The position numbers and the translations under genes are program-made. From Opitutales bacterium (lineage in GTDB: Bacteria; Verrucomicrobiota; Verrucomicrobiia; Opitutales; PNEW01), in NCBI GenBank assembly GCA_965197745.1, contig CBDANS010000007.1, forward strand, positions 1,568,001-1,632,000: 64,000 nt of DNA, written 5' to 3'. Below the pieces are notes generated by a model, which saw only the letters and a program-made list of their open reading frames with translations, was not told the origin of the DNA and ran no database searches. Each line of letters starts with the position of its first letter. Within the stretch, counting starts at the first letter, position 1. Shown here in pieces: positions 4,076 through 44,565 of the stretch.

Positions 4076-4142
4076 GTTTTAGGTGTTAAGTTTTAAGTGT
4101 TAAGTAAAATCAACCTAAAACATAACACATAAAACTTAACAC
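4076..4142. repeat. Inverted pair of heptamer arrays
   Basis: GTTTTAG GTGTTAA GTTTTAA GTGTTAA, 11-bp loop, CTAAAAC ATAACAC ATAAAAC TTAACAC. Confidence 0.85.
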
Positions 4143-4202
4143 GCGCTTGCGCCCGCGTTATCCTTGACACTCTACGGTCGTTGCTAATTAAGATCGCAAC
4201 CG

Positions 4203-5045: not shown

Positions 5046-5096
5046 GAAATGCAAAAGGGTTAATACCCAGAACTTAGAAATAATTAAATTAATCAC

Positions 5097-5855
5097 ATGG
5101 AATTAAAAGGAAAAGCAGCATTAATTACAGGCGGCAACAGCGGAATCGGTGAAGCTATCGCATACGCCTTGGCGGAAAAGGGAACAGAAGTATTGATAAG
5201 CGGCCGACGGGAAGAACAGAACCGCGCGGTTGCTGAAGCGATCAGTAAAAAAACCGAGACCCGGGTAGAAGCGGTAACCGCCGATGTCAGCATTGAGGAA
5301 GATTGTGAAATGATGGTTCGCCGAACGATTGAACTATTCGGAAAAATCGATATCTGTGTTAATAGTGCGGGGGTCTCAACGGGACCCCAGTTTTCGGAGC
5401 TTTCCACCGAAGTCTTTGATCAGGTACTTAAAACCAATTTATACGGAGCATTCTGGTGTTCACGAGCCGCATTTAACGCGATGCGTAAGAATAAACTGAG
5501 TTCTCCGGATGATATTCGTGGTTATATCATAAACATTTCATCGGTTGTAGGACTGGAAGCTTACGCGCGAAGTGGGACTGGGAGTGGCGTTTACAGCGCT
5601 TCCAAATTCGGCATGATGTCGCTCAACCAGGGCATGTCTGGCTCGGGGCAGAAGGAGTTGATAAAAGTTACCGCGATATGCCCCGCTATGGTCTCTACGC
5701 CAATGACTGAAGAATGGCGAAGCAACAATAGCAAAGAAGGTGATGAATTTATTGAACCCGAAGATGTAGCCGAAACAGTGCTTTACCTCATGCGCCTCTC
5801 ACGTGCAGTCTGGCCCGTGCAGGAAGTTTTGCCCAGACGTGAAGATGAGTGTTGA
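5097..5855 (+). CDS. SDR family NAD(P)-dependent oxidoreductase
   Basis: TGGNSGIG, VNSAG, YSASK. Confidence 0.93.
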   Translation: MELKGKAALITGGNSGIGEAIAYALAEKGTEVLISGRREEQNRAVAEAISKKTETRVEAVTADVSIEEDCEMMVRRTIELFGKIDICVNSAGVSTGPQFSELSTEVFDQVLKTNLYGAFWCSRAAFNAMRKNKLSSPDDIRGYIINISSVVGLEAYARSGTGSGVYSASKFGMMSLNQGMSGSGQKELIKVTAICPAMVSTPMTEEWRSNNSKEGDEFIEPEDVAETVLYLMRLSRAVWPVQEVLPRREDEC

Positions 5856-5906
5856 GAGATTTGCGATATTCGAATGCCAATTTTCGATTGAGTTATTACT
5901 CTCTTC

Positions 5907-6014
5907 TTGTCATTGTGAAGGAGGCGATAGCCGACTGCGGCAATCCAGGGGAATGTCTGTTGCGAAATGTAATTTCCCTGGATTGCCGCGTCGCGTTGCT
6001 CCTCGCAATGACAA
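5907..6014. repeat. REP-like long hairpin TTGTCATTG...CTCGCAATGACAA
   Basis: Terminal inverted arms plus inner GCGGCAATCCAGGG/CCCTGGATTGCCGC; right arm recurs at 16215-16240. Confidence 0.85.
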
Positions 6015-6061
6015 TTGAAATTGATGTATTCTCCATCTAAGATTTAATAGTGGAACAAAGT

Positions 6062-6955
6062 ATGAAGGTTTTAAGCAAAGAAGATCTAAAGTTCTGGGAT
6101 GAGAACGGTTACGTTATCATTCATGATGCGGTTCCTCCGGAAAATATTAAAGCGGCCAAGGATGCGATTTGGAGTTTTTTGGGAATGCAACCTGACAACC
6201 GGGAGAGTTGGTATCCCGACCCGCCTCGGAAGGGTATTGGGATTGAGATGTATCATCACCAGGCTTATTGGGACAACCGTCAATACCCTCGCGTGCATCA
6301 AGCCTTTGCCGATATCTGGGGAACGAATCGGTTGTGGGTAAGTTTTGATCGCGGCAGCATGAGTCCTCCGGATCGCACAAATCCTCAAGATTCCGATAAA
6401 CTGAACGGGGGTTCCTCATCGAAACTACCCCTTCCCATTCACTTTGATGGCCCCGTAGATCCTGCCAATCCGTTTTGTGTTCAAGGTGTGCTCTATCTTA
6501 CAGACACGAAAGAGAATGGGGGTGCATTCATCTGTGTCCCTGGGTTCCATCGGAAAGTCGCTGCCTGGTTGAAGACATTGCCTCCTGATTCCCATCCGAA
6601 TAGACAAGATTTTATGAGCCTCGGCGCAAAGCCGATTGCAGGTAAAGCAGGTGATCTCATTATCTGGCACCAATTACTGCCCCACGGGGCAAGTCAGAAT
6701 ACGGCGCGGTATCCAAGGGTGGTGCAATACATCACCATGTTCCCTGCGCAGGAAAAGGATGAAGAAACGCGAAATTATCGTGTCAGCGCATGGCAAAATA
6801 ACCTGGCCGGCGGAGGGGCCTGGGGTGTGATGCACGAGTTACCTATCGGCAAGAAAGTGGAGCTGCGAAAAGAAAAGGAACATGCCATCGGTCGACCCGT
6901 GAAACTATCTCCCCTAGGCCGAAAACTGCTGGGGTTAGATTCCTGGGAGCGCTGA
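6062..6955 (+). CDS. PhyH family dioxygenase
   Basis: HFD, WHQLLPHG, PRVVQY; paralog of 1817..2692; ATG 6062 chosen by alignment. Confidence 0.93.
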   Translation: MKVLSKEDLKFWDENGYVIIHDAVPPENIKAAKDAIWSFLGMQPDNRESWYPDPPRKGIGIEMYHHQAYWDNRQYPRVHQAFADIWGTNRLWVSFDRGSMSPPDRTNPQDSDKLNGGSSSKLPLPIHFDGPVDPANPFCVQGVLYLTDTKENGGAFICVPGFHRKVAAWLKTLPPDSHPNRQDFMSLGAKPIAGKAGDLIIWHQLLPHGASQNTARYPRVVQYITMFPAQEKDEETRNYRVSAWQNNLAGGGAWGVMHELPIGKKVELRKEKEHAIGRPVKLSPLGRKLLGLDSWER

Positions 6956-7046
6956 AGCGCTTTGCGCAGCAGTTAGTTTTAGGTTGAAAGAAGTATTATC
7001 CGCCAGGATCAATCGAAATTCGCAAATCGCAAATCGACAATGGCTA

Positions 7047-8498: not shown

Positions 8499-8684
8499 TC
8501 GTGTGTCCTCTCATTTGTATTCATTTTGGAAAAATCCTCCTTTTTCAACAGGAGATGACGCATTGATTCCTATCACAAGAAAATTTTCAACCTATTGCCC
8601 CTTCAATTACAAAAAGATCGGTATGACCCCTTTTGAATTTGCCTGTAGAGTGAAAACTTAAATATTATGATGAGGAGTAGCTAA

Positions 8685-9437
8685 ATGAAACTCAAGGCAT
8701 CAGAAGTCCAAACTTTTCAACGAGAGGGATACTTGAAGATCCCCCATCGGATAATTGAGGAAGACCACCTTCAGCGTCTTGTCAGGTCCTATGACGAGGT
8801 ATTTAATGGAGCGGGTGTACGCAACCTTTCGGAAATGGAATCCACAACTGAAGATGCCGTGGAAACAGATGACGGGAAGATGTGGAAAGTGGAGGAGATG
8901 TGGAAAAGAAGCGAGGATTTCTGGCATCTGGTCTATCACAAGCCATTGCTTGAGATTGTTGAGAGCCTGATTGGTAGAAGCGTACAGCTATTTGGAGACG
9001 AGGCACTTTATAAACCAGCGAACAATGGTGGCCCTATACCCTGGCATCAGGACAATGGCTATTGGCGCTGTCAACGTGCAGACCTGGTCAGTATCTGGAT
9101 TGCCCTCGACGATGTCGATGAAGAAAACGGATGCATGTATGTAATCCCCGGTAGTCACATTAGCGGTGAGGTGGAGCATTCACGATCTAAGACGGGTGAT
9201 GGCAATATATCGAAGATTTTGCTGACAACTCAGGTTGATGAAAGCAAAGCGGTCCCCATACCCTTGTCCGCGGGTCATGCCATGGTTCATCACTGTTTAA
9301 CCTTACATGCTACCCGACCAAACTTTTCTAGCCATGATCGGCGCGCAATAGTCATTAATTACATGCCAGTTGGTACCCGAAATGGTGAAGGGGAGTTGTT
9401 GAAAGAAGGTTTTCCCATTTTAGCTTCCACGTCGTAA
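8685..9437 (+). CDS. PhyH family dioxygenase
   Basis: FQREGYL, WHQD, WIALDD..ENGCM.VIPGSH, HHCLTLH, DRRA. Confidence 0.95.
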   Translation: MKLKASEVQTFQREGYLKIPHRIIEEDHLQRLVRSYDEVFNGAGVRNLSEMESTTEDAVETDDGKMWKVEEMWKRSEDFWHLVYHKPLLEIVESLIGRSVQLFGDEALYKPANNGGPIPWHQDNGYWRCQRADLVSIWIALDDVDEENGCMYVIPGSHISGEVEHSRSKTGDGNISKILLTTQVDESKAVPIPLSAGHAMVHHCLTLHATRPNFSSHDRRAIVINYMPVGTRNGEGELLKEGFPILASTS

Positions 9438-9475
9438 GCTAATGAATAGATAAGAGAGTCGTGTGGAGTCGCTAA

Positions 9476-10252
9476 ATGAAACTCAAGGAATCAGAAGTCC
9501 AAACTTTTCAACGAGAGGGATACTTGAAGGTCCCCCATCGGGTGATTGAGAAAAATCACCTCCAGCGTCTTGTCAGATCTTATGACGAGGTATTTAATGA
9601 CCATGGAATAGGAGAAGGTGTGCGCAACCTTTCGCAAACGGAATCCACAACTGAGGCAGCGGTGGAAACGGATGACGGGAAGATGTGGCAGGCAATGGGG
9701 ATGTGGAAAAGAAACAAGGATTTCAGGTATCTGCTCTATCACAAGCCGTTGCTCGATATTGCTGAGAGTCTGATTGGTGGAAGCGTACAGCTATTTGGAG
9801 ACCAGGCGCTTTATAAACCGGCGAACAACGGTGGCCCTATTCCCTGGCACCAGGACAATAGTTATTGGCGTTGTCAGCCAGCAAAACTGGTCAATATCTG
9901 GATTGCCCTCGACGACACCGATGAAGAAAACGGTTGCATGAATGTCATCCCCGGCAGTCACGCGAGCGGTGCGTTGGAGCATTCACGAGCTAAGACGGGC
10001 GATGGAAATACATCGGCTATATTAATGACATCACAGGTAGATGAGGGGGGCAAAGCTGTCTCCATACCCTTGACCGCGGGTCATGCCATGGTTCATCATT
10101 GTTTAACCTTTCATACCACGCAGCCAAATTATTCCAGCCGTGACCGGCGGGCAATGGTCATTCACTACATGCCGGTAGGGACCCGCAATGGTGTCGGGGA
10201 GTTGTTGGAAGAGGAAGACTATCCGCTATTGAGAGGTCAGAACGTTAATTAG
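9476..10252 (+). CDS. PhyH family dioxygenase, tandem duplicate of 8685..9437
   Basis: Same motifs; near-identical 5' nucleotide sequence and RBS region. Confidence 0.95.
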   Translation: MKLKESEVQTFQREGYLKVPHRVIEKNHLQRLVRSYDEVFNDHGIGEGVRNLSQTESTTEAAVETDDGKMWQAMGMWKRNKDFRYLLYHKPLLDIAESLIGGSVQLFGDQALYKPANNGGPIPWHQDNSYWRCQPAKLVNIWIALDDTDEENGCMNVIPGSHASGALEHSRAKTGDGNTSAILMTSQVDEGGKAVSIPLTAGHAMVHHCLTFHTTQPNYSSRDRRAMVIHYMPVGTRNGVGELLEEEDYPLLRGQNVN

Positions 10253-10267
10253 ACAAGCAGGACAGGT

Positions 10268-10290
10268 CCTTCGGCGATGCTCAGGGCAGG
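10268..10290. repeat. Short REP-like element CCTTCG...GCTCAGGGCAGG
   Basis: Related copies in reverse orientation at 12330-12353 and 46085-46108. Confidence 0.7.
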
Positions 10291-10425
10291 CAGGTGTCGG
10301 GTGTCGGAATAGATATATAAGATGGACAATGAAAACGACCATCAATAGCGTGGATGGGAATGGGGATTTTATTTAAATCCATGCACGCATAATTTTACAC
10401 ATAAGATAAAAATGGAAGGTTGCCG

Positions 10426-12125: not shown

Positions 12126-12392
12126 GGTGGAGCGGGCTGCCTGACGTCCATAGCCTAACAACGCACAGCGACGGCTGTTCCCCTAGCACGCTTCTTTACT
12201 TACGACATTCACCAACGCGGTAGGGAACAGCCGTCGTCCCGCGGTGGCGGGACTATGGCTGTCAGGCACCGCGTTCCACCCTATATGTCATAGCTAAGAT
12301 GATAATTTACATATTACCTCTGAACCCAACCTGCCCTGAGCGCAGTCGAAGGGAACCTTCTTACCTAATACTTAAATCCTAACACCTAACAC
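12126..12392. repeat. GGTGGAGCG...CGTTCCACC hairpin (12126-12280) with nested inserts, plus REP-like 12330-12353 and YTAAMAC heptamers
   Basis: Inverted arms visible; homologous to 2824-2937, 19362-19451 and 23448-23524. Confidence 0.85.
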
Positions 12393-14985: not shown

Positions 14986-15192
14986 GCGATAGCCATTACC
15001 GAGACCCGCGGCTGCGTGAAAACATCTTCCAAAGGTAGAGAAGACACAAGAAAAAGATTTAGGGAAATAAGGTGGAGCCATCAGGCACGGCGACCCACCA
15101 TTTTCAATTTATAATAAATAGTAGAGTGGAATCCTGCATTCGCATAGACGCTATCCCTCTACAGGTGTCGGTATCAACACACGCGCTGTAAC

Positions 15193-15220
15193 TTGACATC
15201 AAAGCCACTAATTTTATATT
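15193..15220 (+). promoter_or_regulatory. Putative sigma-70 promoter of 15231..16073
   Basis: TTGACA-16 bp-TATATT ending 10 bp before the ATG (near-leaderless). Confidence 0.45.
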
Positions 15221-15230
15221 AACCGGTATC

Positions 15231-16073
15231 ATGAAATATGTTACTCCCGATACGGACTGGTCTAAATTGACTTTAGGGGAGAGGATCAAACATCTCGAAA
15301 TCGAAGGTTACGTCGTAGTTCCAGATATTCTCAGTCCCGAGCATGTCAAAAAGCTCAAAGCTGAAACGATAAAACTTGAGACTAACCATACCGATTACAG
15401 TGAGAGACAACGTGTTTTAAAAGAGAGAAATCTGGAGTATAAGGGTGGGGTCTTTACCGATCTAGTTGCCCATCCTCCCACCATCGCTTTCTTGAAAGAA
15501 CTTTGTGGCGATGAGATTATCATGATGTCGTACTCCTATTCGCGTTCTGAACCGGGCCATCCGGGTATCAATTTTCATAGTGATGCCATGAGTTATGGAT
15601 CGCACCATTTTGGACACTCACTCAGCTGTCCGAAAATGCTGCGTGTTCTCTACTACCTGGACGATCTAACCCCGGAAGTTTCACCTTTCCGCATTATCCC
15701 TCGCACGCATCTTAGTTTTCATAATCAGGCCAACCCCTACCTGCGTTACAAGGAACATCCTGAACAGGTCATGGTTACCTGCAAGGCGGGGTCTGCAGTT
15801 TTCTTTAATATGTATTGTTTTCACGGAAATTTCCCTAACGTAGGGGATAGGCCGCGAGAAGTGTTGTTAATAAGTTACCGTCCTTCGTGGGCCGGTCCGA
15901 TTAATGAAATTGAGTCGAGAGACCCTGAAAAAGTAGCAACCCTGCCCCCAGAAATACAAGCGTTAATGGGCGATTTGAATACCCGCATCTGGAAGCCGGA
16001 TGCAGGTAACATTCACCCCGACATGCCCAGTGAAGCTACGGGAATCAATCCGAGTCGTTGGGATCGCGTCTAG
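15231..16073 (+). CDS. PhyH family dioxygenase
   Basis: LEIEGYVVV, FHSD, YYLDD, PFRIIPRTH, CFHG, PRE. Confidence 0.9.
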   Translation: MKYVTPDTDWSKLTLGERIKHLEIEGYVVVPDILSPEHVKKLKAETIKLETNHTDYSERQRVLKERNLEYKGGVFTDLVAHPPTIAFLKELCGDEIIMMSYSYSRSEPGHPGINFHSDAMSYGSHHFGHSLSCPKMLRVLYYLDDLTPEVSPFRIIPRTHLSFHNQANPYLRYKEHPEQVMVTCKAGSAVFFNMYCFHGNFPNVGDRPREVLLISYRPSWAGPINEIESRDPEKVATLPPEIQALMGDLNTRIWKPDAGNIHPDMPSEATGINPSRWDRV

Positions 16074-23407: not shown

Positions 23408-23639
23408 GTGTTAGGTGTTAAGTTTTAAGTGTTAAGCAATTAGGTAAGGTGGAGCGGGCTGTCCCTAGCGCGCTTCTTCTCTTCTATTAATAAACTAGCG
23501 CGCTAGGGACAGCCGCGTTCCACCGTATATGTCATAGGGAAGATGACAATTTGCATATTACAGCTGAACTCTGAAACGTGAACCTTCTTTTTAACAGGCG
23601 CAATAACGCTATTCAACTGTTAACCGTTCACTGTTTACT
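23408..23639. repeat. Composite repeat block with uninterrupted GGTGGAGCG hairpin (23448-23524)
   Basis: GTGTTAR heptamers, GGCTGTCCCTAGCGCGCT/AGCGCGCTAGGGACAGCC arms, CTGAACT heptamers, closing CCGTTCA/CTGTTTA heptamers. Confidence 0.85.
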
Positions 23640-28076: not shown

Positions 28077-29659
28077 TTGGAAAAGGAGCAGACCTTGGGA
28101 ATAATCGATACAGCGGTCATCGTAATTTATTTATGCGTCCTTGTCGTTATGGGTGTGTATTTTTCACGCCGCCAAAAGACGACAGAAAACTATTTTCTAG
28201 CAGGTCGAAACTTACCGGGATGGGTGGTCGGTTTTTCTATTATGGGAACAATTATCGGGACCATTACCTTCATTGGTAATCCCGGAGAGGTATTTAAAAC
28301 TAACATGTGGGGTTTGCCCTCGAGTTTAGCGTACCCGTTCGTCATGGTTTTTGTGTCCGTTTATATAGTCTCCTTTTATCGCCGGACGATTCGCATGACT
28401 GCCTATCGATATTTGGAGATGCGGTTTGGCTACCCCGTGCGGGCCTATGGCGCGGGTGTATTTCTGGTCGGCCACATTTTACATTTAAGTATGACTTTCT
28501 ATTTTCTGGCGGTCGCCGTTGCTTACATGAGCGGATGGGATGTGTGGTGGGTAATCCTTTTCGTAGGCCTGGCGACAGTCATTTACACAGTGGTCGGAGG
28601 TATAGAAGCTGTCGTCTGGTCTGATGTAATACAAGGCAACTTACTTTTAATCGGCGGTCTGACTTGTCTGTGTGTGCTTCTTTTCTCATCCGATGCTGGT
28701 CCCACCGTAATTGTCGCCAAAGCCTGGGAGGGGGGGAAGTTTTCATTGGGTAATTGGGATTTCAGCTGGTATGAAAAAAAATGTGGTTTTTCGTTGTTGG
28801 TGGAATATTGGGCGCACTCCAAAGTTTAGCCTGTGACCAGTCCAATGTACAACGTTATCTCCTGGCAAAGACAGATAAAGAAGCAGCTCGTGCAGCCTTT
28901 ATGGGAGCAGTTGTCTGTGTTCCCATCTGGTTCCTTTTTATGGTAATAGGTGCTTTAACGTGGGCGTTTTATGAATTATCAACGGATCCACTTCCAGCCG
29001 AGGTGCTTCAACAAAAGGACTTTATCCTACCGTATTTTATAAAAACCCAATTACCTGCAGGATTGGTTGGGCTTATTTTAGCTGCATTATTAGCATCAGC
29101 CATGTCATCAATCGATTCACATTTGAATGCAATTGCGCTCGTCGTCGTCAATGATTTTTATGTGCGACTACGCCCCAAATCCAAAGATAAACATCGACTG
29201 CTCCTGGGGAAAACTGTGGTTGTGTTTTTTGGCGTGTCCTCGATCATAATGGCACAGCAATGGATCGGGATTAAATCGGTTATTGAATTATCCATTGTCG
29301 TTGGAGCGATGATACCGGGGGGAATTCTCGGTGTGTTTACTCTCGGGTTTTTATTTCGATGGACGACGGCAAGGGGTGCCTGTATTGCCATTGCAATTAG
29401 TATTATCTTTAATTCGTGGGCAGCGTTTACGCGTATTACTCTCCCAGGAATGGAATCACCCTTGCTTGATTTCGGGCGTTTTAATTACACTTTGAGCCCA
29501 TTCGTGATTGGAATATTCAGCTATTTTGTTCTCCTGGGCGCCGGCATGCTGGCGAGTTTACTTGCAGGGGGGCCCCGATCGGATACCAGGGATCTTACTT
29601 TTTGGGATGTCCTCGAAAGACGTCGGGAGGAGAAGAAATTATTGAAAAGTGAACAGTGA
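28077..29659 (+). pseudogene. Sodium:solute symporter, frameshifted in A8 tract near 28775
   Basis: ORFs 28077..28829 and 28781..29659 together align end to end with paralog 29946..31511. Confidence 0.88.
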
Positions 29660-29675
29660 ACAGTGCTTCTGCGTC

Positions 29676-29735
29676 TTAACATGGGTGATGATTTTTAGCG
29701 AGAACGTTGAATACGGTGTCGTTTAATTTTTGCAT
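29676..29735 (-). pseudogene. 5' remnant of a copy of the 27033..27854 PhyH gene
   Basis: MQKLNDTVFNVLA.. versus MQKLNDTVFDALA..; upstream sequence also similar. Confidence 0.78.
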
Positions 29736-29945
29736 GGTGTATTCGGAATTGGTGAGCGCGTTAGCTTATCTTGCAACTTCCTCTAGGGTCGAATCGGATT
29801 GCATTTCTGAAATTGAAAATATTATTAAGAAGGCAAATTAAACTATTCGGTATTATAGAAATAAACTTATCTCACTCAGATAACAAAAGCATTAATATTT
29901 CATCGAAATGATCGCCTGTTATAATAATATGAAGCGGAGCAACCC

Positions 29946-31511
29946 TTGGGAATAATAGATACAGCGGTCATCGTTATTTATTTAGGCGTCCTTGTAACTA
30001 TGGGTGTGTATTTTTCACGCCGCCAAAAGACGACGGAAGACTACTTTCTAGCGGGTCGCCACTTACCGGGATGGGTGGTCGGTTTTTCGATAATGGGTAC
30101 AATTATCGGGAGCGTAACCTTCATAGGCCATCCCGGAGAGGTATTTAAAACCAACATGTGGTCATTGCCCTCGCATTTAGCTTACCCGTTTGTCATGGTT
30201 TTTGTGTCTATTTATATAGTCTCCTTTTATCGCCGGACGATTCGCATGACTGCCAATCAGTACTTGGAGATGCGATTTGGCTACCCCGTGCGGGCCTATG
30301 GCGCGGGAGTATTTCTTGTGGGGCACATTTTACATTTAAGTGTGACTTTCTATTTTCTGGCGGTCGCCGTTGCTTACATGAGCGGATGGGATGTGTGGTG
30401 GGTAATCCTTTTCGTAGGCCTGGCGACAGTCATTTACACAGTGGTCGGTGGTATTGAGGCAGTCGCCTGGTCTGATGTAATACAAGGCAACTTACTTTTA
30501 ATCGGCGGTCTGACTTGTCTGGGTGTTGTTCTTTTCTCATCCGATGCTGGTCCCACCGCAATTGTCGCAAAGGCCTGGGACGGGGGAAAGTTTTCATTGG
30601 GCAATTGGGATTTCAGCTGGTATGAAAAAAATCAGTGGTTTTTCGTCGTTGGTGGAATATTGGGCGCAATCGGTGGTTTAGCCTGTGACCAGTCCAATGT
30701 ACAGCGCTATCTCCTGGCAAAGACCGACAAAGAAGCAGCTCGAGCAGCTTATATGGGAGCAGCTGTGTGTGTTCCCATCTGGATTCTTTTTATGGTAATA
30801 GGCGCTTTAACGTGGGCATTTTATGAATTATCAACGGACCCACTTCCAGACGAGGTGCTTCAACAAAAGGACTTTATCATACCTTACTTTATTAAGACCC
30901 AATTACCTGCAGGATTGGTTGGTCTTATTTTAGCGGCGTTATTGGCAGCAGCCATGTCATCGATCGATTCAAATTTAAATGCAATTGCGCTGGTAATCGT
31001 CAATGATCTTTATGTGCGACTGTGTCCCAAATCCAAAGACAGACAACGCCTGCTCCTGGGGAAAACTGTGGTTGTGTTTTTTGGCGTGTCTTCGATCTTC
31101 ATGGCACAACAATGGATCGGGATTAAATCAGTCATTGAATTATCCATTATCGTGGGAGCGATGATACCGGGTGGTATTCTCGGTGTGTTTATGCTCGGGT
31201 TTTTATTTCGATGGGTGACGACAAGGGGTGCCTATATTGGCGTTGCAGTTAGTATTATCTTTAATTCGTGGGCAGCGTTTACGCGAATTACTCTCCCGGG
31301 TATGGAATCACCCTTGCTTGATTTCGGGCGTTTTAATTACACCTTGAGTCCATTCGTGATTGGAATCTTCAGCCATTTTGTTCTCATGGGCGCAGGGATG
31401 CTGGCAAGTGTAATTGCAGGGGGGCCCCGAAAGGATACGAAGAATCTTACTTTTTGGGATGTCCTCGATAGACGCAGGGAGGAGAAAGAATTAGTGAACA
31501 GTGAACAGTGA
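29946..31511 (+). CDS. Sodium:solute symporter (tandem paralog); original start probably ATG 29929, one base out of frame
   Basis: DYFLAGR, YLEMRFG, GGIEAVAWSD, DQSNVQRYL, AAAMSSIDS; EAEQPLG upstream aligns to the paralog's EKEQTLG. Confidence 0.9.
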   Translation: MGIIDTAVIVIYLGVLVTMGVYFSRRQKTTEDYFLAGRHLPGWVVGFSIMGTIIGSVTFIGHPGEVFKTNMWSLPSHLAYPFVMVFVSIYIVSFYRRTIRMTANQYLEMRFGYPVRAYGAGVFLVGHILHLSVTFYFLAVAVAYMSGWDVWWVILFVGLATVIYTVVGGIEAVAWSDVIQGNLLLIGGLTCLGVVLFSSDAGPTAIVAKAWDGGKFSLGNWDFSWYEKNQWFFVVGGILGAIGGLACDQSNVQRYLLAKTDKEAARAAYMGAAVCVPIWILFMVIGALTWAFYELSTDPLPDEVLQQKDFIIPYFIKTQLPAGLVGLILAALLAAAMSSIDSNLNAIALVIVNDLYVRLCPKSKDRQRLLLGKTVVVFFGVSSIFMAQQWIGIKSVIELSIIVGAMIPGGILGVFMLGFLFRWVTTRGAYIGVAVSIIFNSWAAFTRITLPGMESPLLDFGRFNYTLSPFVIGIFSHFVLMGAGMLASVIAGGPRKDTKNLTFWDVLDRRREEKELVNSEQ

Positions 31512-33599: not shown

Positions 33600-33739
33600 G
33601 AGTATTCCTCTCCCTCGCGGTATTCTGTTCGCGAAATCAAAAAACGAACGGCGCCTGTAATATTACAGATATTTTATTCATCATAAATGAAGAAATACCC
33701 ATACCACGCTTTGAATAAAGAACACGAGTTAAGGAATTG

Positions 33740-33812
33740 TGTATTTATCAGTTGTCCAGTTTGACAACATTATCTTACTTCTTGAATATGCAGAAATTTA
33801 AAATCACGTGTT
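33740..33812 (+). repeat. 73-bp attI-like repeat, copy 1 (most diverged)
   Basis: Ungapped alignment to copies 2-4; similarity ends at GTT 33810-33812. Confidence 0.75.
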
Positions 33813-33900
33813 CCGTTGTGAATCCATGCATTGACGCCATGTTGCATATCGAGATGTTCGCGACTTGAGCGCACGGGCATCCACAGTGAGTATTTCGAAA

Positions 33901-34662
33901 ATGTTACAGATTGATCTTACCAACAAGGTGGCGGTTGTCACCGGCGGCAGCGGCGAGCTGGGCCGGGTCATGGCCAGGACACTAGCGGGCTGTGGCGCGG
34001 CAGTGGCGGTGCAGTACCTGCGCGGCCGGGATCGGGCCGAGGCCGTGTGCCGGGACATCGTTAACACCGGCGGTACGGCAATGACGGTGCAGGCTGAAGT
34101 GAGCGATCTTGACTCGGTCCATGCCATGCACGGCGCGGTGGCCGAGGAGCTCGGTCACACCGACATCATCGTGAACAATGCCGTGCATCAGTACGACTGG
34201 ACCTCGGTGCTCGAACAAGCGGCGATGGATTACGAAAGCCAGTTCCGCACCTGTGTCCTGCACAATGTATTCATGGCGAAGGCCTTCGTTCCGCACATGA
34301 TCGAGCGTCAGTGGGGGCGGGTCATCGGGATCAATACCGAGTGCACCATGCGGTGCACGCCCAGTCAGTCGGCCTACATCTCAGGCAAGGCTGGACAGGA
34401 TCGTGTCTTGCGGGTACTGGCCAAGGAAGTGGGGCAGCACGGTATCACAGTCAACCAGGTGGCGCCGGGCTGGACCATCAGCGACAAGTATCGCGAAACG
34501 CCGGCGGAGGACAAAGGGTACCGGGACCTCGTACCCATGGGGCGTCGCGGTGAGGACCAGGAGATCGCCAACGCCGTTGCCTTCCTGGCCTCCGATCTCG
34601 CCGCCTTTATCACCGGGCTGTACCTGCCTGTCTGCGGCGGCAACGTCATGCCCGGGATCTAA
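33901..34662 (+). CDS. SDR family oxidoreductase (FabG-like)
   Basis: TGGSGELG, VNNA, YISGK, NQVAPG; visibly GC-rich. Confidence 0.92.
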   Translation: MLQIDLTNKVAVVTGGSGELGRVMARTLAGCGAAVAVQYLRGRDRAEAVCRDIVNTGGTAMTVQAEVSDLDSVHAMHGAVAEELGHTDIIVNNAVHQYDWTSVLEQAAMDYESQFRTCVLHNVFMAKAFVPHMIERQWGRVIGINTECTMRCTPSQSAYISGKAGQDRVLRVLAKEVGQHGITVNQVAPGWTISDKYRETPAEDKGYRDLVPMGRRGEDQEIANAVAFLASDLAAFITGLYLPVCGGNVMPGI

Positions 34663-34675
34663 GAGGTATTTATCG

Positions 34676-35469
34676 ATGCAACAGCTGAACCAGGAACAAC
34701 TCGATCATTTTGAAGGTGAAGGCTATATCATCCTTCCCGGTTTCTTCGGTGAAGCTGAAGTGCAGGAGCTCCTCGAGACGATGAGAAGAATCCTGCCAAC
34801 AATCAAACGTGGGACGCCGGCGACAGGCCATGATCCCCGGACTCAAGAACCGGGTGATGACTTGAATCCGCTGAGAGTCAGTTATATCAACGACCTGTTC
34901 GAGTATGACCAGAGGCTTGACGACCATATGAGGAGTGAGCGTCTAGTTAGTGTTCTGATGGATCTTTTCGGTCCGGATATTACAGCCTTCCAATCCGCCA
35001 CAGTGATTAAAACCCCTCATCTCAATTTTGACTACCATGGCTGGCATCAGGATATGTATGATTATCAGCCACTATCAAATTTCAATAATGCAAATGCAAT
35101 GACTTATCTAGGGGATATGGGACCGGGCACCGGCAGTACTTCACTTGTCCCCGGAAGCCACCTTGTCGGAATCCTTCAGCCGGTGTGGGAGGATGTTGAG
35201 GGCTGGCCCAAAAAACAGAGACGGCTTGAAGGTTTCGAAAATACGAGGCGGATGTTGTTACGCCTCACTTCAGATCCGGTGACGTTCTTGTTTTTGATTC
35301 CAGACTGATGCATCGGGCTAACTCAAATGCTGACGACGCAACAAAAATCGGACTGGTAAACGTATTTCAATCTGCGGATTGTATTGACATAGATGGAAAG
35401 AACGATTTCCACGTCGCGAATCTACCGATTGCCAGTCAAGGTAAAGTCCCACAAGCGAAGAGAGCATGA
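34676..35469 (+). pseudogene. PhyH family dioxygenase, frameshifted in A tract near 35238
   Basis: FEGEGYIIL, WHQD, LVPGSH; shifted frame restores SGDVLVFDSRLMHRANSN and ends at TGA 35467-35469. Confidence 0.87.
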
Positions 35470-35621
35470 AGATGGTGGCAGAGAGGCACCCAGTTAGATA
35501 GTTACCGAACAGTTTCGCGACGACGTCAAGGATGTGGAACGGGGTCAGGCATTGGAATCGGTTGGGTTACATCGAGAGCGAAACCTTTTCCCTCGATCCC
35601 TTGACCCCTTTATTAATCTTC

Positions 35622-35696
35622 TACGCCGACTGGGCTCCAGATGATCCGCTCAAGTACTACTGGCAATCGCTACCCCTGGATGTGCAAACGTATTGA
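35622..35696 (+). pseudogene. 3'-terminal remnant of a paralog of the 32719..33599 PhyH gene
   Basis: YADWAPDDPLKYYWQSLPLDVQTY* versus YADWDPDDPLKYYWQSLPLDVRTY* at 33525-33599. Confidence 0.88.
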
Positions 35697-35770
35697 AAGT
35701 TTTATTCGCGAACGCTCCCTTTTAGCTTCCCCCGGAATTACCAAAGATGTCATGCTAAGTGGAGAAAGCG

Positions 35771-36952
35771 ATGAAGCGCCCACACTACAATAAAGATCTG
35801 GATGTTCGCATAGTGGGAGTGGAAGATTTACCGCAAGCCCGTCAAGTGGCCGGACGCGCTTATGGTATGCACTGCGAAGATTGGTACAGGATGGAGACAA
35901 TCCTGGGTGGATTCGATAAGACCGGGACACTGGTTTGTGTCCTGAATTTTCAACCCGAATCGCTGTGGTGGGGTCACGCACAGATTCCTGCCAGGGCCAT
36001 CGAGTGTGTGGCTACCGATCCCAAGCATCAGGGGCGCGGACACACCGGAGGGCTCATGGTGCAGGCTATTCACATTCTACGAGAGCGGGGATGCTATATC
36101 TGTCCACTATGGCCTTCTTCCTTCAGGTGGTACGGTAAATTTGGTTGGGTCAGCCCCGCACCTGTCTTAGGGTTGAAAGTATGGCCAGATCTGATGCGTC
36201 AGACCAACCCAACTCCGGAGACAATACGCCAGGCAACATCCGATGATGTGATGGCCGTTATCCGGTTGTACACGGAAGGGGCACAGTTGCGAAACGGACA
36301 ATCCGTGCGTTCGGAGAGCTTTTGGCTAAAGGAGGAGATATTGCATCAGCTTTGGGTGCTGGAGGGTGAGAGCAGCGGCTTGGACTGTTGCGCCATAGTC
36401 AAACTAGAGGATATACGGCAAGCCCAGGGGAAAAGAGTCACCGTGCGAGAATTGCACGGAGCCACCTTTGCTTCCCAACTGCGCTTGGTCCTGTCCCTGG
36501 CTGAGCTGGACCGAGTCGTCGCCCTGAATCTCGAGCTGCCGGCTGGCAGTCTGTTTCTTCACGCCTTTCCCGAACGTTTTGACATTGCCGTCAACCATGC
36601 CATGGCACTGAGGGTGCTGCATGTGGAACGGGCCTTGGAGCATCTCAAGCCACCCGATGATTTGCGGGTACAGGTTTCCTTCGAGGTGACCGATTGGGTG
36701 ATCGATGCCGACAAGCCGTTGGCAGTGACGGCCCAGGTGGAAGAAGGAGATGTGGAGGTGGTCGATAAGGCGGGTAAGGATGCGCTACGTTGCGATATCT
36801 ATACCTTCACACAATTATTTGCAGGTGGCTTGACGGCGGCTGAGGCCCGGGGGTTGAGCCGCCTGGAGGGCGGCAATCCAGCGGTGGATGCAGCCTGTGA
36901 TGCCTTGCTGACTGGGCGCGTGCCGTATCGCTCATGGGTCGAAGCCGGTTAG
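35771..36952 (+). CDS. Eis-like GNAT acetyltransferase with C-terminal SCP2-like domain
   Basis: IECVATDPKHQGRG, LWPSSFRWYGKFGW, MALRVLHVERALE, FTQLFAG; about 390 aa. Confidence 0.85.
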   Translation: MKRPHYNKDLDVRIVGVEDLPQARQVAGRAYGMHCEDWYRMETILGGFDKTGTLVCVLNFQPESLWWGHAQIPARAIECVATDPKHQGRGHTGGLMVQAIHILRERGCYICPLWPSSFRWYGKFGWVSPAPVLGLKVWPDLMRQTNPTPETIRQATSDDVMAVIRLYTEGAQLRNGQSVRSESFWLKEEILHQLWVLEGESSGLDCCAIVKLEDIRQAQGKRVTVRELHGATFASQLRLVLSLAELDRVVALNLELPAGSLFLHAFPERFDIAVNHAMALRVLHVERALEHLKPPDDLRVQVSFEVTDWVIDADKPLAVTAQVEEGDVEVVDKAGKDALRCDIYTFTQLFAGGLTAAEARGLSRLEGGNPAVDAACDALLTGRVPYRSWVEAG

Positions 36953-37085
36953 AGCAAACATGTATATGACCGGATTGGGATTCACAATCGATAAAATCGG
37001 ATCGTAATCTCACGTAACTAATAGCACGACACAACTAACCAGTTGTTGCAATTGACTGACATCTTTTTATTCCTGCAGAAAATTT

Positions 37086-37158
37086 TGTATTCGCCAGTTG
37101 CCAATCTTGACAACATTATCCCCACACACGAATTTACTGAACTTTAGAATCAATTGTT
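37086..37158 (+). repeat. 73-bp attI-like repeat, copy 2
   Basis: Ends at core site GTTGTAA (37156-37162). Confidence 0.85.
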
Positions 37159-37284
37159 GTAAGTAAAACAATCCAAATCGAAATCGGAATCGATCCCGAA
37201 AGCGATTTCGATCCCGATGAAAGAAAATCACAACCAGACGGTGAAGGCAACGACTAACGGCGTGCTTCACTTTTAGCATTAATA
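37157..37284 (+). mobile_element. ORF-less integron-type cassette with degenerate attC (37228-37284)
   Basis: GTTGTAA...TCACAAC near-complementary core sites; GTGAAG[G]CA[A]CG pairs with CGTGCTTCAC leaving two unpaired bases; distal GTT reads ATT; body is AATCGR/GATTTC hexamer repeats. Confidence 0.65.
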
Positions 37285-37313
37285 GGTAAATTACTTAAAA
37301 GGGAGTCAGGCGG

Positions 37314-37386
37314 TGTATTTATTAGTTACCAACCTTGACAACATTGTCCCCATTCGCGAATTTACAGAACTTTAGAAACACTTGTT
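37314..37386 (+). repeat. 73-bp attI-like repeat, copy 3
   Basis: Ends at core site GTTAGGA (37384-37390). Confidence 0.88.
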
Positions 37387-37856
37387 AGGAGGCGCTATGG
37401 AGTTTCTGGCACTCTATTATGTGGTCGCCGATGCCATACTTATTACGCATGTACTGTTCGTAGTCTTTGTTGTGCTCGGCTTGATTCTTATCTTCGTAGG
37501 TAAGTTTCTATCATGGCATTGGGTCAGAAATCCGTGGTTCCGTGTCACACATTTATTAGGAATTGGCGTTGTCGTTTTGCAATCCTGGTTCGGTGTCATT
37601 TGCCCGCTGACGATCTGGGAAATGGATCTACGATCGAAAGCGGGGGAAACTGTCTACGAGGGTTACTTCATAACGCACTGGTTAAACGAACTCTTGTACT
37701 ATCAAGCCCCATCGTGGGTTTTTGTGGTTTGTTACACAGTCTTTGGTGGGCTGGCGTTGTCTAGCTGGTTTTTGGTGCGACCGCGTGTATTTTCGGCAGG
37801 GTTTCAGAGTGGTGCCTCCTAACAAGTCAATCAACTTCGCGCATTCGGTGTTAAAT
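37385..37856 (+). mobile_element. Integron gene cassette with truncated attC
   Basis: GTTAGGA 13 bp before ATG and perfectly complementary TCCTAAC (37817-37823) overlapping the stop, followed by AAGTCAATCAAC attC-type left arm and GTTAAAT at 37850. Confidence 0.75.
37397..37822 (+). CDS. DUF2784 family membrane protein
   Basis: ADAIL..H.LFV.FVV.G, FR..HL, CPLTIWE..LR, FI.HWL..LLY. Confidence 0.88.
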   Translation: MEFLALYYVVADAILITHVLFVVFVVLGLILIFVGKFLSWHWVRNPWFRVTHLLGIGVVVLQSWFGVICPLTIWEMDLRSKAGETVYEGYFITHWLNELLYYQAPSWVFVVCYTVFGGLALSSWFLVRPRVFSAGFQSGAS

Positions 37857-37886
37857 TACAGAAGGGGTCAGGCTTGGCTAGAAAAC

Positions 37887-37959
37887 TGTATTTATAAATT
37901 ACCAACCTTGACAACATTATCCCCATTCTCGAATTTACAGAACTTTAAAATCACTTGTT
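37887..37959 (+). repeat. 73-bp attI-like repeat, copy 4
   Basis: 67/73 identical to copy 3 by hand count; ends at GTTGTAT (37957-37963). Confidence 0.88.
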
Positions 37960-38070
37960 GTATGCCCTATCCCAGACAGTTCGCAGGTCCGCTCGAAGCA
38001 ATGCTAGCTACACACGACGTGGCGTTTTTCTCGCAAACGGTGTTGAAGAGGGGAAAGGAGAAAAAAGTAA

Positions 38071-39087
38071 GTGACCGCTAAGTACCGTGCATTAATAATT
38101 GGACCGGGTGGGGCCGGCACGGCGGTGATGAATGCGATGAAGGAAGACGGCCGGGGCGAGCCGGTGGCCTTCGTGGAAACGCGGAAGGAACGCATCGAGC
38201 AATTGAAAGAGAAGTATCCCGACGCCATCATTGGCACCGATTTTTTGAAAGTACTGCAGATCTGCAAGCCGGATGTCGTCGTCGCTGCCGGACCGGACTT
38301 CCTGCACGGCCCGCAGTGCCTGGCCGCACTGGAGGCGGGCTGCCACGTGCTCATTGAAAAACCCATGGCGACCAGCGTGGAAGACGCAAGAATGCTTCTG
38401 GAGGCCGAGGAACGCACCGGCAAGATCATCATGGTCGACTACACCATGCGGTATTCACATCCCTGGGGCACGATGATGCAGGCGGCCAGGGAAGGGCGGA
38501 TCGGTAAGATCTTTTATCTGGCGGGCTTCTACATCCACGACATGTGGAACTGGTACGACGAGAAGGGCAAGAATTGTACCCCGTGGCGGGTCGATAAAGA
38601 TAACCCGCAGAACATTCTGTTCGGTGGCGGGTGCCACGGGTTGGACATGGTTCTATATGTTATGGAAAATGACCCGGTCACCGAGGTTTATTGTTGCGGT
38701 AATCGTTTGTCAGGCTCCAACATGCCCATCGAGGACTGCTTCCTGGTCTCGATGAAGTTCGAGAGCGGCGCCGTCGGCAAGGTATTTGTCACAGCCGGCT
38801 GCAATCGTGGCGATATGGGAAATATGTTCGAGGCTTACGGTACTGACGGGACGCTCGTCGACGGCAGACTGCTTCGGCGTACGTCCGAGCCCGAGCTGTT
38901 GCCGCAGTCCAGCAACATTCAAAAAGGCCACGGCTGGAACCTGACCGTCCGCGACTTCCTGGACGTGTTGGATGGAAAGCGGGAGAACTGGATGAACTCA
39001 ACCTTCGGCGCCCGGAACGTGTCGATCTGCGATGCCGCCATGAAATCACTGAGGACAGGCAACGTCGAGACGGTGACGTGGTTCTGA
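38071..39087 (+). CDS. Gfo/Idh/MocA family oxidoreductase
   Basis: IIGPGGAG, HVLIEKPMA, GGGCHGLD; AAGGAG RBS. Confidence 0.92.
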   Translation: MTAKYRALIIGPGGAGTAVMNAMKEDGRGEPVAFVETRKERIEQLKEKYPDAIIGTDFLKVLQICKPDVVVAAGPDFLHGPQCLAALEAGCHVLIEKPMATSVEDARMLLEAEERTGKIIMVDYTMRYSHPWGTMMQAAREGRIGKIFYLAGFYIHDMWNWYDEKGKNCTPWRVDKDNPQNILFGGGCHGLDMVLYVMENDPVTEVYCCGNRLSGSNMPIEDCFLVSMKFESGAVGKVFVTAGCNRGDMGNMFEAYGTDGTLVDGRLLRRTSEPELLPQSSNIQKGHGWNLTVRDFLDVLDGKRENWMNSTFGARNVSICDAAMKSLRTGNVETVTWF

Positions 39088-39123
39088 GTGGACTTGACAC
39101 GCGCAATTCAGGGAGAATGTTAT

Positions 39124-40176
39124 ATGGCCATTGGTGTAGGAGTCATCGGTATGAATCCGACCAACATGGGATCAACCATGACCCTGTTGAAGGATGTGCC
39201 AGACCTGAATTTTGAGCTACGGGGCATCTGCGCTCAACGGGCAGAGGTCCTGGAAGCGTACGCCAAACAGATCGGCGTCGACTTTTGGACGACGGACTTT
39301 CGGGAATTAGTGAGCCGCGGCGACATCGATGTGGTTGCCGTATACTCCCCCGATCACCTCCACGCCGAACACTGTCTGGCCGCGGTTGAAGCGGGCAAGC
39401 ATGTCCTCTGCACCAAACCGATGGTGACAAACCTGGACGACGCCAAAAAGCTTGTGGGTGCGGTTAATAGAAAAGGGGTCAAATTTCTGGTCGGTCAGTC
39501 GATGCGTTTCGATTCCCAGTTCCTGACGATGCGTCGCCATTTCGACGATGGCGACCTGGGTGAGATCATGGTCGCCGAGGCCTACTACGTCCATGATATG
39601 CGCGAGGTTTATGGTTTCACGCCCTGGCGTTTAAGCGTCCCCCAGGACATGATGTTCGGCGGAGTCGTTCATCCGGTGGACATTTTACGCTGTTTCCTGG
39701 GCGACGTGGAGGAAGTGCACGCCTACGGCGCAAAAGGAAAACTCACCCCTGAATTCCCATTACCGAACAATTTCTTCCTCAATCTGAAGTTCAGCAGCGG
39801 GCAAATCGGTCGTGCAATGGGACTCTATGACGTTGTGCATCCGCCCATGCCCATGATGCAGGTATTGCTCTACGGCGCCAAAGGAACGATGATCGGAGAC
39901 TTCACCGATAATAAAGGCGGGCAAGTCAAGCTCATGTCGGATAAAATGTCAGCGAGAGAACCGCTGCAGATGACATGTCCTCCGGAAACAGATACCAGCG
40001 TTTACGGTCATGGCCAATCTGTGATCCGCTACATGCGACATCTTCAGGAATGTATTGAGGGTGATCTAGAACCAACGCCTAATGTGGTCGAAGGGGCTAA
40101 GTCGGTGGCCGTTGGAGTAGCAGCATGGGAATCGATTCAGACGGGCAGTCCGGTGAAGGTGTTCAACGAATTTTGA
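39124..40176 (+). CDS. Gfo/Idh/MocA family oxidoreductase
   Basis: SPDHLH, HVLCTKPM, VGQSMRF, GGVVHPVD. Confidence 0.92.
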   Translation: MAIGVGVIGMNPTNMGSTMTLLKDVPDLNFELRGICAQRAEVLEAYAKQIGVDFWTTDFRELVSRGDIDVVAVYSPDHLHAEHCLAAVEAGKHVLCTKPMVTNLDDAKKLVGAVNRKGVKFLVGQSMRFDSQFLTMRRHFDDGDLGEIMVAEAYYVHDMREVYGFTPWRLSVPQDMMFGGVVHPVDILRCFLGDVEEVHAYGAKGKLTPEFPLPNNFFLNLKFSSGQIGRAMGLYDVVHPPMPMMQVLLYGAKGTMIGDFTDNKGGQVKLMSDKMSAREPLQMTCPPETDTSVYGHGQSVIRYMRHLQECIEGDLEPTPNVVEGAKSVAVGVAAWESIQTGSPVKVFNEF

Positions 40177-42992: not shown

Positions 42993-44565
42993 GAATGGCG
43001 TTAAGATAAGGGTGGTTTAGGATGATAAAAGCCTTTGTTTTTTCGTGAAGCAGAGACGGTCATCATGGCTCGTGGATGAGTCAATCGTTGGAAAGGTATA
43101 GGTCTACGTTTGAGGACTCTTGGTTCGTATCGGAAGGGACGTAGGGGGACCGATTCGAGGGCAATGAGGTGTATCATCTCGTCAATGACAGATCGTTGGG
43201 CTCTGGGATTAAACCGGGTGGCCGCGAGCGCACTTTGATATTGGCGGAGGGTGTCAACAGCCCCCTTGAAGCTTAGCCGGGAGAGGTCGCGGTGGAAGGC
43301 ACTGGCAGCTTGCTGCAAAAGAGCGCGGATGAGAGATTGTAGGCGATGGCAAACATCGCAATCTCTTTGCGCACGAGAGCGACCGAGCGAGAGCGCAGGA
43401 TCTCCATCCCCATGGTGGTTTTGATGTGGCGAAAGTAAAGCTCCACTGCCCAGCGCCGATAGTATAATTCTCCGAGATCGTGGTGGGAGTATTGGTGAGG
43501 ATCGCTCAAGGTAGTCACGAGGTCTACGCTATGGGCGCGGAAACCTTTGATGAAAATGAAAATCTTCACCAGCCGTACGGGGATCTCATCAGGGATTTGC
43601 CGCCACTGCTCGCGACTGAAGCCGAAGACATTTTGCGGCTTCTTCCACATGATCAGCCGGTCATACCTACCCAAGGACCTGCCCTGACGAAAGTCGCTTC
43701 TTCGTTGCTGATGCAAACGCATGACCGCTTCAGCACCGCGGCCTTTAAGCAGGGCAATATTGAGGTAAGAGCAAAATCCCCGGTCGGCAAGGACCACATC
43801 ACCCTTTTGAAAAAATCCGATCATGCCCCGCAACAGCACACTGTCATGATGCCTTAGTGAGGACTCCATCCAGTGTAAAAGCGCCCCACTGGCTAAAGAA
43901 AAACAGCCCACCAGCTTCACCACCGGAAAGCCGCAGCCGCTTCGTTGCTGCGAAGGCTGTGGGTAACACCTCTGCAAGCACGGCGTATCGGCGGTGGCGA
44001 TACCCGTGCCGTCGACCACTTTTACCTCGTGACCTTTCCACCGTTGATCGTCGGTCACTCTCCCGGCCACCTCTTCACTGATCGCTTCATGGATCCCGTG
44101 CAGGTCTTGCACCAACAGCCGTTGCCTCGCCTGACAGTAGGCCGAGGCCGTTCCTTTAGCCAACTTCAGCCCCTTCATGCTGCAATAGCTCTGGAGCTTG
44201 CGCACCACTTCCCGGCAGGCAGTCCGTGGTGAGAGCACTTGGAACAAAAATGCCCAGAAGGTCACGTTTTGGCTGAACAATCTCCGCCGGCTGTTAGCCC
44301 CTCGAGGCTTCCGGTGTAAATACTTTTGCGGCACCCACTGCCCGAAGATATCCGATAGCTCGGAAAGACTTGACCGCCGTATTTCTACCAGCTTACCCTC
44401 CATCTGTGCAAGGGCTGTTCGGGGAGCACGACCGAACAGGACCTGATTAAATCCTGGAAAATAACGAGTTAAGTTTTGTTTTTGCATGCTCGTTAGGGTA
44501 GCTCTCCAACGGTCCCTGTACAAGCATCTATTGCACTCATTCTATCCCTTATCTTAACGCCATTC
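42993..44565 (-). mobile_element. IS4-family insertion sequence, 1573 bp
   Basis: Perfect 20-bp terminal inverted repeats GAATGGCGTTAAGATAAGGG (42993-43012) and CCCTTATCTTAACGCCATTC (44546-44565) enclosing a DDE transposase. Confidence 0.92.
43001..44487 (-). pseudogene. IS4-family transposase, frameshifted near 43332 (extra dinucleotide)
   Basis: VVDGT, LADRGF, Y..RWAVE..FR..K signature; AYNL-IRAL split; C-terminus EPRVLKRRP in ORF 43001..43318; stop within the IR. Confidence 0.9.

Follow-up and report, generated by a model that had tools for sequence, protein, structure and literature searches.

The stretch examined here (the window) comprises 64,000 nt of contig C7 of G000, the marine Opitutales genome under study (G000:C7:1568001-1632000), and our subject is a 73-nt repeat within it, the 73-mer, which resembles the attI recombination sites of integrons. 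A repeat search of the window recovered it as a family of direct repeats (D8) with exactly four copies that align without gaps, located at 33740-33812, 37086-37158, 37314-37386, and 37887-37959 (copies 1 to 4, respectively). All four lie on the + strand, contain the hexamer TTGACA, and terminate in GTT, and the likeness among them breaks off at this GTT. Identity to copy 3 is 74, 82, 100, and 92% for copies 1 to 4, and a profile of the four copies searched against the whole of G000 returned them with E values of 7e-21 to 2e-17, so the repeat does not arise by chance. A first-pass annotation of the window had described four co-oriented, ungapped copies that keep TTGACA and lose similarity after GTT, all of which was borne out. 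Its length of exactly 73 nt holds for the aligned window copies, but copy 1 belongs to a longer subtype and copies 3 and 4 have roughly a further 35 nt upstream in common, with insertions and deletions (TAAATTAC..GGGRGTCAGGC). In integrons, each platform normally carries a single attI, a double-stranded, non-palindromic site of about 65 bp that lies next to the integrase gene intI and is bound and recombined by the cognate integrase, and only the attC sites are multiplied.

The features surrounding the four copies are likewise all on the + strand. Copy 1 represents a long form of the repeat, termed A-type, that is conserved over ~135-175 nt upstream; conservation of this extent is seen throughout an alignment of eight A-type copies from four sources, and it stops at the GTT in 8/8. 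The upstream extension in the window (33645-33739) includes a 14-bp palindrome, CTGTAATATTACAG, at 33655-33668, and homology to three copies in G032, a genome of the same family, begins near 33645. Behind copy 1, and following a second GTT, the sequence TTGTGAATCC (33816-33825) starts 4 nt past the repeat, and its exact reverse complement GGATTCACAA is found at 36978-36987, 99 nt before copy 2, followed by a T in place of a C. Together they form the terminal inverted repeat of a 3.2-kb unit with SDR (short-chain dehydrogenase), PhyH, and GNAT genes, the first of which is the SDR gene (33865-34662; Pfam adh_short_C2, E 6e-39). The inverted-repeat end of this unit looks like a decayed cassette end, though there is no attC behind it. 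Copies 2 and 3 are separated by 155 nt, which begin with the remnant of what we call a four-helix-bundle unit (37159-37286; 23S_rRNA_IVP, PF05635), in which the leader GTAAGTAAAACAATCC.. and the tail ..CACTTTTAGCATTAATAGG are retained and the open reading frame (ORF) is deleted. The extension common to copies 3 and 4 (TAAATTAC..GGGAGTCAGGCGG), read directly from the sequence, then occupies 37287-37313 before copy 3, and the corresponding extension of copy 4 (TAAATTACAGAAGGGGTCAGGC..) occupies 37852-37886. Copy 4 itself lies 111 nt before an operon with a Gfo/Idh/MocA oxidoreductase gene (38071-40176).

Between copies 3 and 4 lies a cassette-like unit (37385-37850) with a gene for a DUF2784 membrane protein (ORF 37397-37822; Pfam DUF2784, E 1.4e-28). 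Its crossover with copy 3 would fall between G37384 and T37385, and it starts with TTAGGAGGC. At its end, at the stop codon of the DUF2784 gene, is a box of the R'' type, GCCTCCTAAC-AAGT (37814-37827), which is the perfect reverse complement of the 14-nt ACTTGTTAGGAGGC at 37380-37393; the match is 15/18, a value attained by 1/300 random probes. Judging from its bases, a possible degenerate short attC ends the unit with GGTG/TT (37848-37853; a slash marks the proposed point of joining throughout), and the attC model described below (R2) has no match at this unit. The first-pass annotation had placed integron-type cassettes behind both copies 2 and 3, which is upheld for the DUF2784 unit and does not apply to the decayed unit behind copy 2. 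Contigs from four public DNA runs span copy 3, the DUF2784 gene, and copy 4 without differences. The short contigs of these runs contain no interpretable joint at any 73-mer, and the single joint of the 'opposite strands' kind (37281/37959) probably stems from another copy of the repeat.

On neither strand do the four copies fold better than shuffled sequence (z 0.06 to 1.78), and, being unstructured by itself, the 73-mer is not an attC. Its earlier description as non-palindromic is accurate overall, even though many copies still contain the short dyad GTTGTCAA-NN-TTGACAAC. The conserved core of ~57 nt reads CAACCTTGACAACATTATCCCCATACGCGAATATACAGAACTTTAGAATCACTTGTT. Across G000, the four-copy profile detects 20 copies (nhmmer, E<1e-4), while Infernal detects 21, on both strands, and these are gathered in five clusters: C7:26-81k, C7:1108-1110k (copies at C7:1108108 and C7:1110155), the window, C7:2044-2054k, and C6:752-754k. 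Among the 20 copies, conservation stops at a terminal GTT in 17, the base that follows is a purine in 18, and TTGACA is kept in 14, where it points toward the cassette; in 15/20, an ORF of 60 aa or more begins in the same orientation no more than 55 nt downstream. Integrons have a cassette promoter (Pc) that lies upstream and reads into the cassettes, and the first-pass annotation had also speculated that each site might bring its own promoter. This notion gains no support from a two-hexamer consensus scan of the + strand, which 0/4 window copies pass. These copies have a perfect -35 hexamer, but the best hexamer at a spacing of 16-18 nt matches TATAAT at no more than 3/6 positions. We also considered the A-type palindrome CTGTA-N4-TACAG as a LexA box and rejected it, as it is not enriched (4 found versus ~4.2 expected) and does not lie ahead of recA; G000, which is 92% complete, yielded no lexA gene.

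A sequence-only model of the 20 G000 copies (R1) was then run on the genomes of the same family and on 37 genomes of other families. The repeat is present in 4/4 family genomes, with 21 copies in G032 (18 of them co-oriented in one 60-kb stretch), 12 in G060, and 2 in G083 in addition to those of G000, while the 37 genomes of other families yielded just three marginal matches. A 22-nt core pattern searched against species-representative genomes found true copies in G032 only, and in a metagenome collection it led to full-length copies at 3/29 loci, namely L074, L072, and L085, the last being a reversed duplicate of L072. With flanking genes that are 86-94% identical, the array in G032 is the orthologue of the window, and the content between the repeats is different. 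Homology that runs across a PhyH gene and copy 1 stops exactly at the GTT (33812) in both G032 (array positions 14892 and 21319) and L074, and the distance from the orthologous copy 1 to the SDR gene rises from 60 nt in G000 to 3.7 kb in L074 and 7.8 kb in G032. Similarly, the DUF2784 gene is absent from the matching place in G032. Related genomes therefore differ right behind the 73-mer.

Some of the 73-mers are accompanied by hairpins of 50-64 nt that start with an R''-type ...YAAC and end in GTT. Seven of these were aligned (alignment A4) and served as the seeds of an attC model, R2. RNAalifold returned no consensus structure for the seven seed sites, so the structure was derived by hand and then tested by sliding the partners: the R2 hairpin pairs in 74% of cells, versus 26-38% once the partners were slid. 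A fold scan for attC at strict thresholds gave a single hairpin in the window (12214-12275) and missed true sites. R2 has seven matches in G000 (five are seeds of the model, and none is in the window), three in G032, and four in G060. Outside the family, an integron integrase (IntI) is found in 8/15 genomes with R2 matches versus 9/82 without (Fisher P = 5e-4), and in G057 the R2 matches lie 3.5-12.6 kb from divergent intI genes. Given that R2 matches track integrases across the order, we take the R2 sites as real attC. They are imperfect hairpins with R''/L''-L'/R' boxes and bulged bases, which the 73-mer is not. Three attC lie within 2.1 kb at G000 C6:754153-756283, an integrase-less array of the kind defined by at least two close attC, and three further attC-type hairpins stand alone, far from 73-mers and other attC (C7:1510868-1510927, C7:1467757-1467811, and C6:576099-576158).

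The evidence that carries our reading lies at the junctions of these attC cassettes with 73-mers, as four independent cassettes begin exactly at the TT after the last G of a 73-mer. One is a 602-nt block shared by G000 (C7:26k) and G060 (C2:889k) with 96.8% identity and unrelated flanks, which amounts to a single cassette: it includes the 3' 45 nt of the 73-mer, continues as G/TTAGGCGCTC..., encodes an ORF of 158 aa, and finishes with ...GAGCGCCTAAC plus the attC, whose GTT is exactly the right edge of the block. At G060 C1:552k, an A-type 73-mer is followed by G/TTAGAAA..., and the cassette end is ...TTTCTAAC plus attC. The L072 cassette starts as G/TTAGCGTGAAA... and, after ~1.3 kb, ends as ...TTTCACGCTAAC plus attC, with 12/12 bases of the start complementary to the end. 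Lastly, an isochorismatase cassette behind the 73-mer at position 15505 of the G032 array starts with G/TTCGGC and ends with GCCGAAC plus attC. We compared the 9 nt after the 73-mer GTT with the 9 nt before the cassette's own R'' AAC at fixed positions in the four independent cassettes, and complementarity was 9/9 for L072, 8/9 for G060 C2, 6/9 for G060 C1, and 4/9 for G032, a total of 27/36 (P = 4e-10). The first four bases, which correspond to the R box, are complementary in 16/16 cases. From this anatomy, the view that the terminal G/TT of the 73-mer is an integron-type junction is supported, and the presence of genuine attC cassettes at the G/TT of the repeat points to an integron-type enzyme.

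The arrangement of the two kinds of site is also that of an integron. The attC and 73-mers are co-oriented in 5/5 mixed arrays. The clearest case is G060 C1:552k, where the order is 73-mer, cassette, attC, cassette, attC; a 73-mer followed by one cassette and its attC is seen at G000 C7:26k, G060 C2:889k, position 15505 of the G032 array, and L072, and no start was assigned to the first cassette of the array at G000 C6:752-756k. Of 13 attC sites examined, three close cassettes that start at the GTT of a preceding attC and five close cassettes that start at a 73-mer GTT (four of them independent), with no start assigned for the other five. The 73-mer is thus shown to hold the position of attI before attC arrays.

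A second kind of unit is joined at the same place. We collected 29 four-helix-bundle units, which start with GTAAGTAAAACAATCCAAATCG... and, where full length, encode a 23S_rRNA_IVP protein (PF05635, E 4e-20); the short ones, including that at 37159-37286 of the window, are internal deletions. The gene is multicopy (window 37159-37286; G032 array L039-L041; G000 C6:753.5-754.0k), and its leader consists of NNATCG hexamer repeats, to which AATCG-rich short repeats recorded with the repeats of window 1-7000 and 8600-10300 (D19) are similar. In 23/29 cases the unit directly follows a GTT, which belongs to a 73-mer-type end in 21 and to an attC in two (hairpin sites in G032). Most units end in the tail and then a further 73-mer, termed B-type, and some deleted derivatives are joined head to tail via ..CACTTTTAGCATTACTTGTT/GTAAGT.... 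In these respects, the four-helix-bundle unit behaves like a selfish unit. A small peptide in the leader was considered and dropped, as a GTG-initiated frame of 18 codons exists in some copies and most have GTA there. A search of titles and abstracts on PF05635 and the mobility of the four-helix-bundle gene gave nothing on this arrangement.

We also looked for an integron integrase. TIGR02249, the integron integrase family, has no match above its cut-off in G000, where the best matches are XerD (334 bits, above the cut-off of the XerD family) and a XerC-like protein. Among 101 Opitutales genomes, 17 encode IntI, and none of the 17 carries the 73-mer: 4 were covered by the R1 scan described above and 13 by a further scan, which returned a sole match that is marginal, partial, and far from the intI genes. 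A Pfam scan of 64 ORFs (26-46 kb of the window and the G032 array) identified accessory enzymes (PhyH, SDR, GNAT, Gfo/Idh/MocA, sulfatase, and isochorismatase) and no recombinase other than one IS4-type transposase per genome, in agreement with the first-pass annotation, which had seen no integrase in the window. That annotation had invoked an integrase acting in trans, which at present is a guess.

Taken together, we consider it probable that the 73-mer forms the conserved core of an attI-type recombination site that is double-stranded, non-palindromic, and specific to this lineage, and that this site is part of an integron-like cassette system in a single Opitutales family. This assessment is based upon sequence comparison, and the attI-like reading is, overall, largely supported, with limits. 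In Loot et al. (bioRxiv 10.1101/2022.09.11.507474), the right-hand part of attI is described as replaceable, whereas attG sites are genomic targets centred on GWT that are cleaved at a central point and depend on sequence to either side of it. Like attI sites such as attI1, where joining takes place at the G/TT of a GTTRRRY-type core, the 73-mer is conserved only 5' of G/TT (17/20 copies and 8/8 of the A-type), its right side is replaceable, it heads the first cassette, and the cassette starts behind it are complementary to the R'' box of their own attC. Because conservation lies only to the left of the junction, the 73-mer resembles attI and not attG. It nevertheless falls short of two defining features of attI, namely adjacency to a divergent intI and occurrence as a single copy per platform. 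Unlike attI, it is present in 20-21 copies in G000, it extends to ~135-175 nt in the long form, and it is interleaved within arrays, often behind a four-helix-bundle unit.

Several observations weigh against this interpretation. No integron integrase was found in 4/4 family genomes, including G032, which is a single contig, or on the metagenome contigs L072, L074, and L085, and the repeat is absent from 17/17 IntI-bearing Opitutales genomes and so has never been seen beside intI; the expectation of one copy beside intI, which the first-pass annotation had raised as a check, fails. Few copies head a recognizable attC cassette, and end complementarity was detected in just 1/32 units between two co-oriented 73-mers (the DUF2784 unit), which equals the permuted control (mean 3.4%). 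With this frequency and only seven attC in the genome, the earlier proposal of one site per captured unit is too strong. In addition, some differences between genomes are insertions or deletions away from a GTT, such as a block of 560 nt that precedes the GNAT gene of G032, and at G060 C1:552k a second GTTAGAAA, 17 nt upstream of the 73-mer, fits about equally well as the point of joining. As for the attC sites, the R2 seeds were picked by the analyst from the very same genomes, and the attC of L072 scores only 24.7 bits with R2.

The course of events that would fit the attI-type reading is as follows. An integron-type tyrosine recombinase would have made the junctions by recombining attC with 73-mers, and this enzyme may since have been lost from these chromosomes or may be supplied from outside. 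The 73-mer would have become multicopy through small units that have it at their 3' end, such as the four-helix-bundle gene unit and units of ~110-270 nt that have no ORF, which would have inserted at the G/TT of attC sites and of other 73-mers, so that every insertion created a new docking point. Candidate examples of such insertion are the two junctions of attC with four-helix-bundle units in G032 and, in the window, the unit GGTG/TTAAATTAC... that ends in copy 4. Most of the present copies are probably fossil junctions in front of ordinary accessory genes. A bolder version, which we offer tentatively and judge less likely to be true than false, is that the attI site has itself become a mobile cassette, a self-copying docking site whose 73-mer-ended units, with or without a four-helix-bundle gene, insert at the G/TT of attC and 73-mers and so found new points of cassette capture; this would be an inside-out integron dependent on an integrase for which the chromosome no longer has the gene.

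Among other explanations, the 73-mer might be a promoter, leader, or other regulatory module before accessory genes, and merely a favoured target of the attG type that received a few cassettes from a passing integrase. According to Loot et al. (bioRxiv 10.1101/2022.09.11.507474), the double-stranded genomic sites at which IntI1-3 can place attC cassettes are very numerous and have only GWT as their consensus. An attC cassette is present at only 4-5 of the ~55 known copies, and 15/20 copies have a co-oriented ORF close behind them. Nonetheless, we regard this as an unlikely account, since it requires four independent insertions at one nucleotide of one repeat family despite hundreds of thousands of genomic GWT sites, and since attG, as described in the same report, needs both sides and a central cleavage point, whereas the 73-mer is conserved on its left only, as attI is. 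In addition, 0/4 copies pass the promoter consensus scan. A related proposal would make the 73-mer a 'mobile promoter' or intergenic module spread by homologous recombination or duplication without any site-specific recombinase, with its attC neighbours being coincidental. Homologous promoters before unrelated genes are known (PMC3575422), the copies are alike enough for recombination between them, the genomes differ from one another in repeat-bounded blocks of genes, and the 64 ORFs scanned contain no recombinase gene within the arrays. What this proposal leaves unexplained is the R'' complement that starts exactly one base past the G of the repeat (27/36), the razor-sharp 3' edge shared by copies whose 5' edges are ragged, and the occurrence of the same four-helix-bundle unit against both attC GTTs and 73-mer GTTs, and we give it a similarly low probability.

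The 73-mer could also be imagined as one half of an attC of unusual length, namely the 3' part (L'-R'), with R'' ~65-130 nt upstream, in which case it would be a lineage-specific attC comparable to the Vibrio repeats. This idea draws on the R''-type box GCCTCCTAAC-AAGT before copy 4, which is able to base-pair with the terminal ACTT-GTT of the 73-mer and would close a segment of 150 nt. Segments of 150-220 nt ending in each window copy were considered as long attC and rejected, because they fold weakly and inconsistently; one candidate of 158 nt reaches only -14.4 kcal/mol, neither strand of the 73-mer is structured, and a conserved complementary 5' half is lacking. Just 1/32 units had an R'' complement ahead of the following 73-mer, no more than in permuted pairings, so we reject the long attC, and the true attC of this lineage are compact hairpins of 50-64 nt. 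Its probability is accordingly very small, well below that of the two preceding alternatives. Nor does the 73-mer match the end of an insertion sequence (IS), a miniature inverted-repeat transposable element, or a group II intron, any of which the first-pass annotation had recognized as fatal to its proposal: Rfam finds only one tRNA in the window, the 73-mer has no self-complementarity, and the only transposase near the repeats is the IS4-type gene 5 kb away.

The attI-type reading can also be set against other known systems. Clusters of attC sites without an integron integrase have been described as CALINs (Cury et al. 2016, PMC4889954), and G000 resembles these in having a cassette array without an integrase at C6:754153-756283. 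It differs in that the multiplied element is the non-hairpin partner site instead of attC, and the window, with its 0 attC by R2, does not qualify as a CALIN. Similar to attG, the 73-mer is a double-stranded site outside of a canonical integron that takes attC cassettes at GWT/GTT, but attG sites are unique sequences with two-sided requirements, while the 73-mer is a repeated family with one-sided conservation that is reused at one nucleotide. With the reused or 'mobile' promoters (PMC3575422) it shares closely similar upstream sequences before unrelated genes in the same orientation; unlike them, it has a perfect -35 hexamer in 14/20 copies without an acceptable -10 and is defined by a recombination-type junction. 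The first-pass description of a multiplied attI-like platform is partly supported: the G/TT junction, the attI position, and the multiplication hold, and a copy beside intI and one site per captured unit do not. In a literature search, limited to titles and abstracts and with noisy results, no attI was found described as multiplied, orphan, or duplicated. If our reading is true, an attI-type partner that is multiplied ~20-fold, heads attC cassettes at G/TT, and persists without an integrase would constitute a different organization of cassette capture and would extend integron-type recombination to integrase-less Verrucomicrobia. As attI sites are suggested to derive from genomic hot spots (bioRxiv 10.1101/2022.09.11.507474), the 73-mer would also provide a concrete, cloneable site for studying how attI sites arise and spread.

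A number of minor features were recorded in the window and its counterparts. A strong hairpin of ~75 nt, AAAAGGGGTCAGGCTTCGCA...TGCGAAGCCTGACCCCTTTT, occurs at 15161-15400 of the G032 array (L039) and at G000 C7:26.9k. Its arm explains the motif GGGGTCAGGC / CCTGACCCC found in either orientation just upstream of many 73-mers, and the hairpin is probably a terminator or another class of repeat. The hairpin at 12214-12275 is a near-perfect one of 62 nt with an AAC start, a GTT end, and -24 kcal/mol as DNA; part of it coincides with a 57-nt direct repeat (D18, at 12269-12325 and again 11 kb away at 23513-23569), and it may represent a terminator or a further class of recombination site. Direct repeats of 110-300 nt with spacings of ~1.1 kb and 0.8 kb (D1-D4, D7, and D9-D12) are present at 1-7000 and 8600-10300 and indicate tandem paralogous genes. 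A sodium:solute symporter gene is duplicated in tandem at 28077-31511, with the first copy (28077-29656) present as two ORFs and both copies intact in G032. The PhyH-family gene at 34677-35469 is split by a frameshift, while the orthologous gene in G032 is uninterrupted (275 aa); contigs of three public runs have an additional A after position 35237 at ~40-60% of the summed depth, and the frameshift is therefore either polymorphic or an assembly error. Finally, the IS4-type DDE transposase gene is at 43273-44520 on the - strand, and the homologous segment is inverted in G032.

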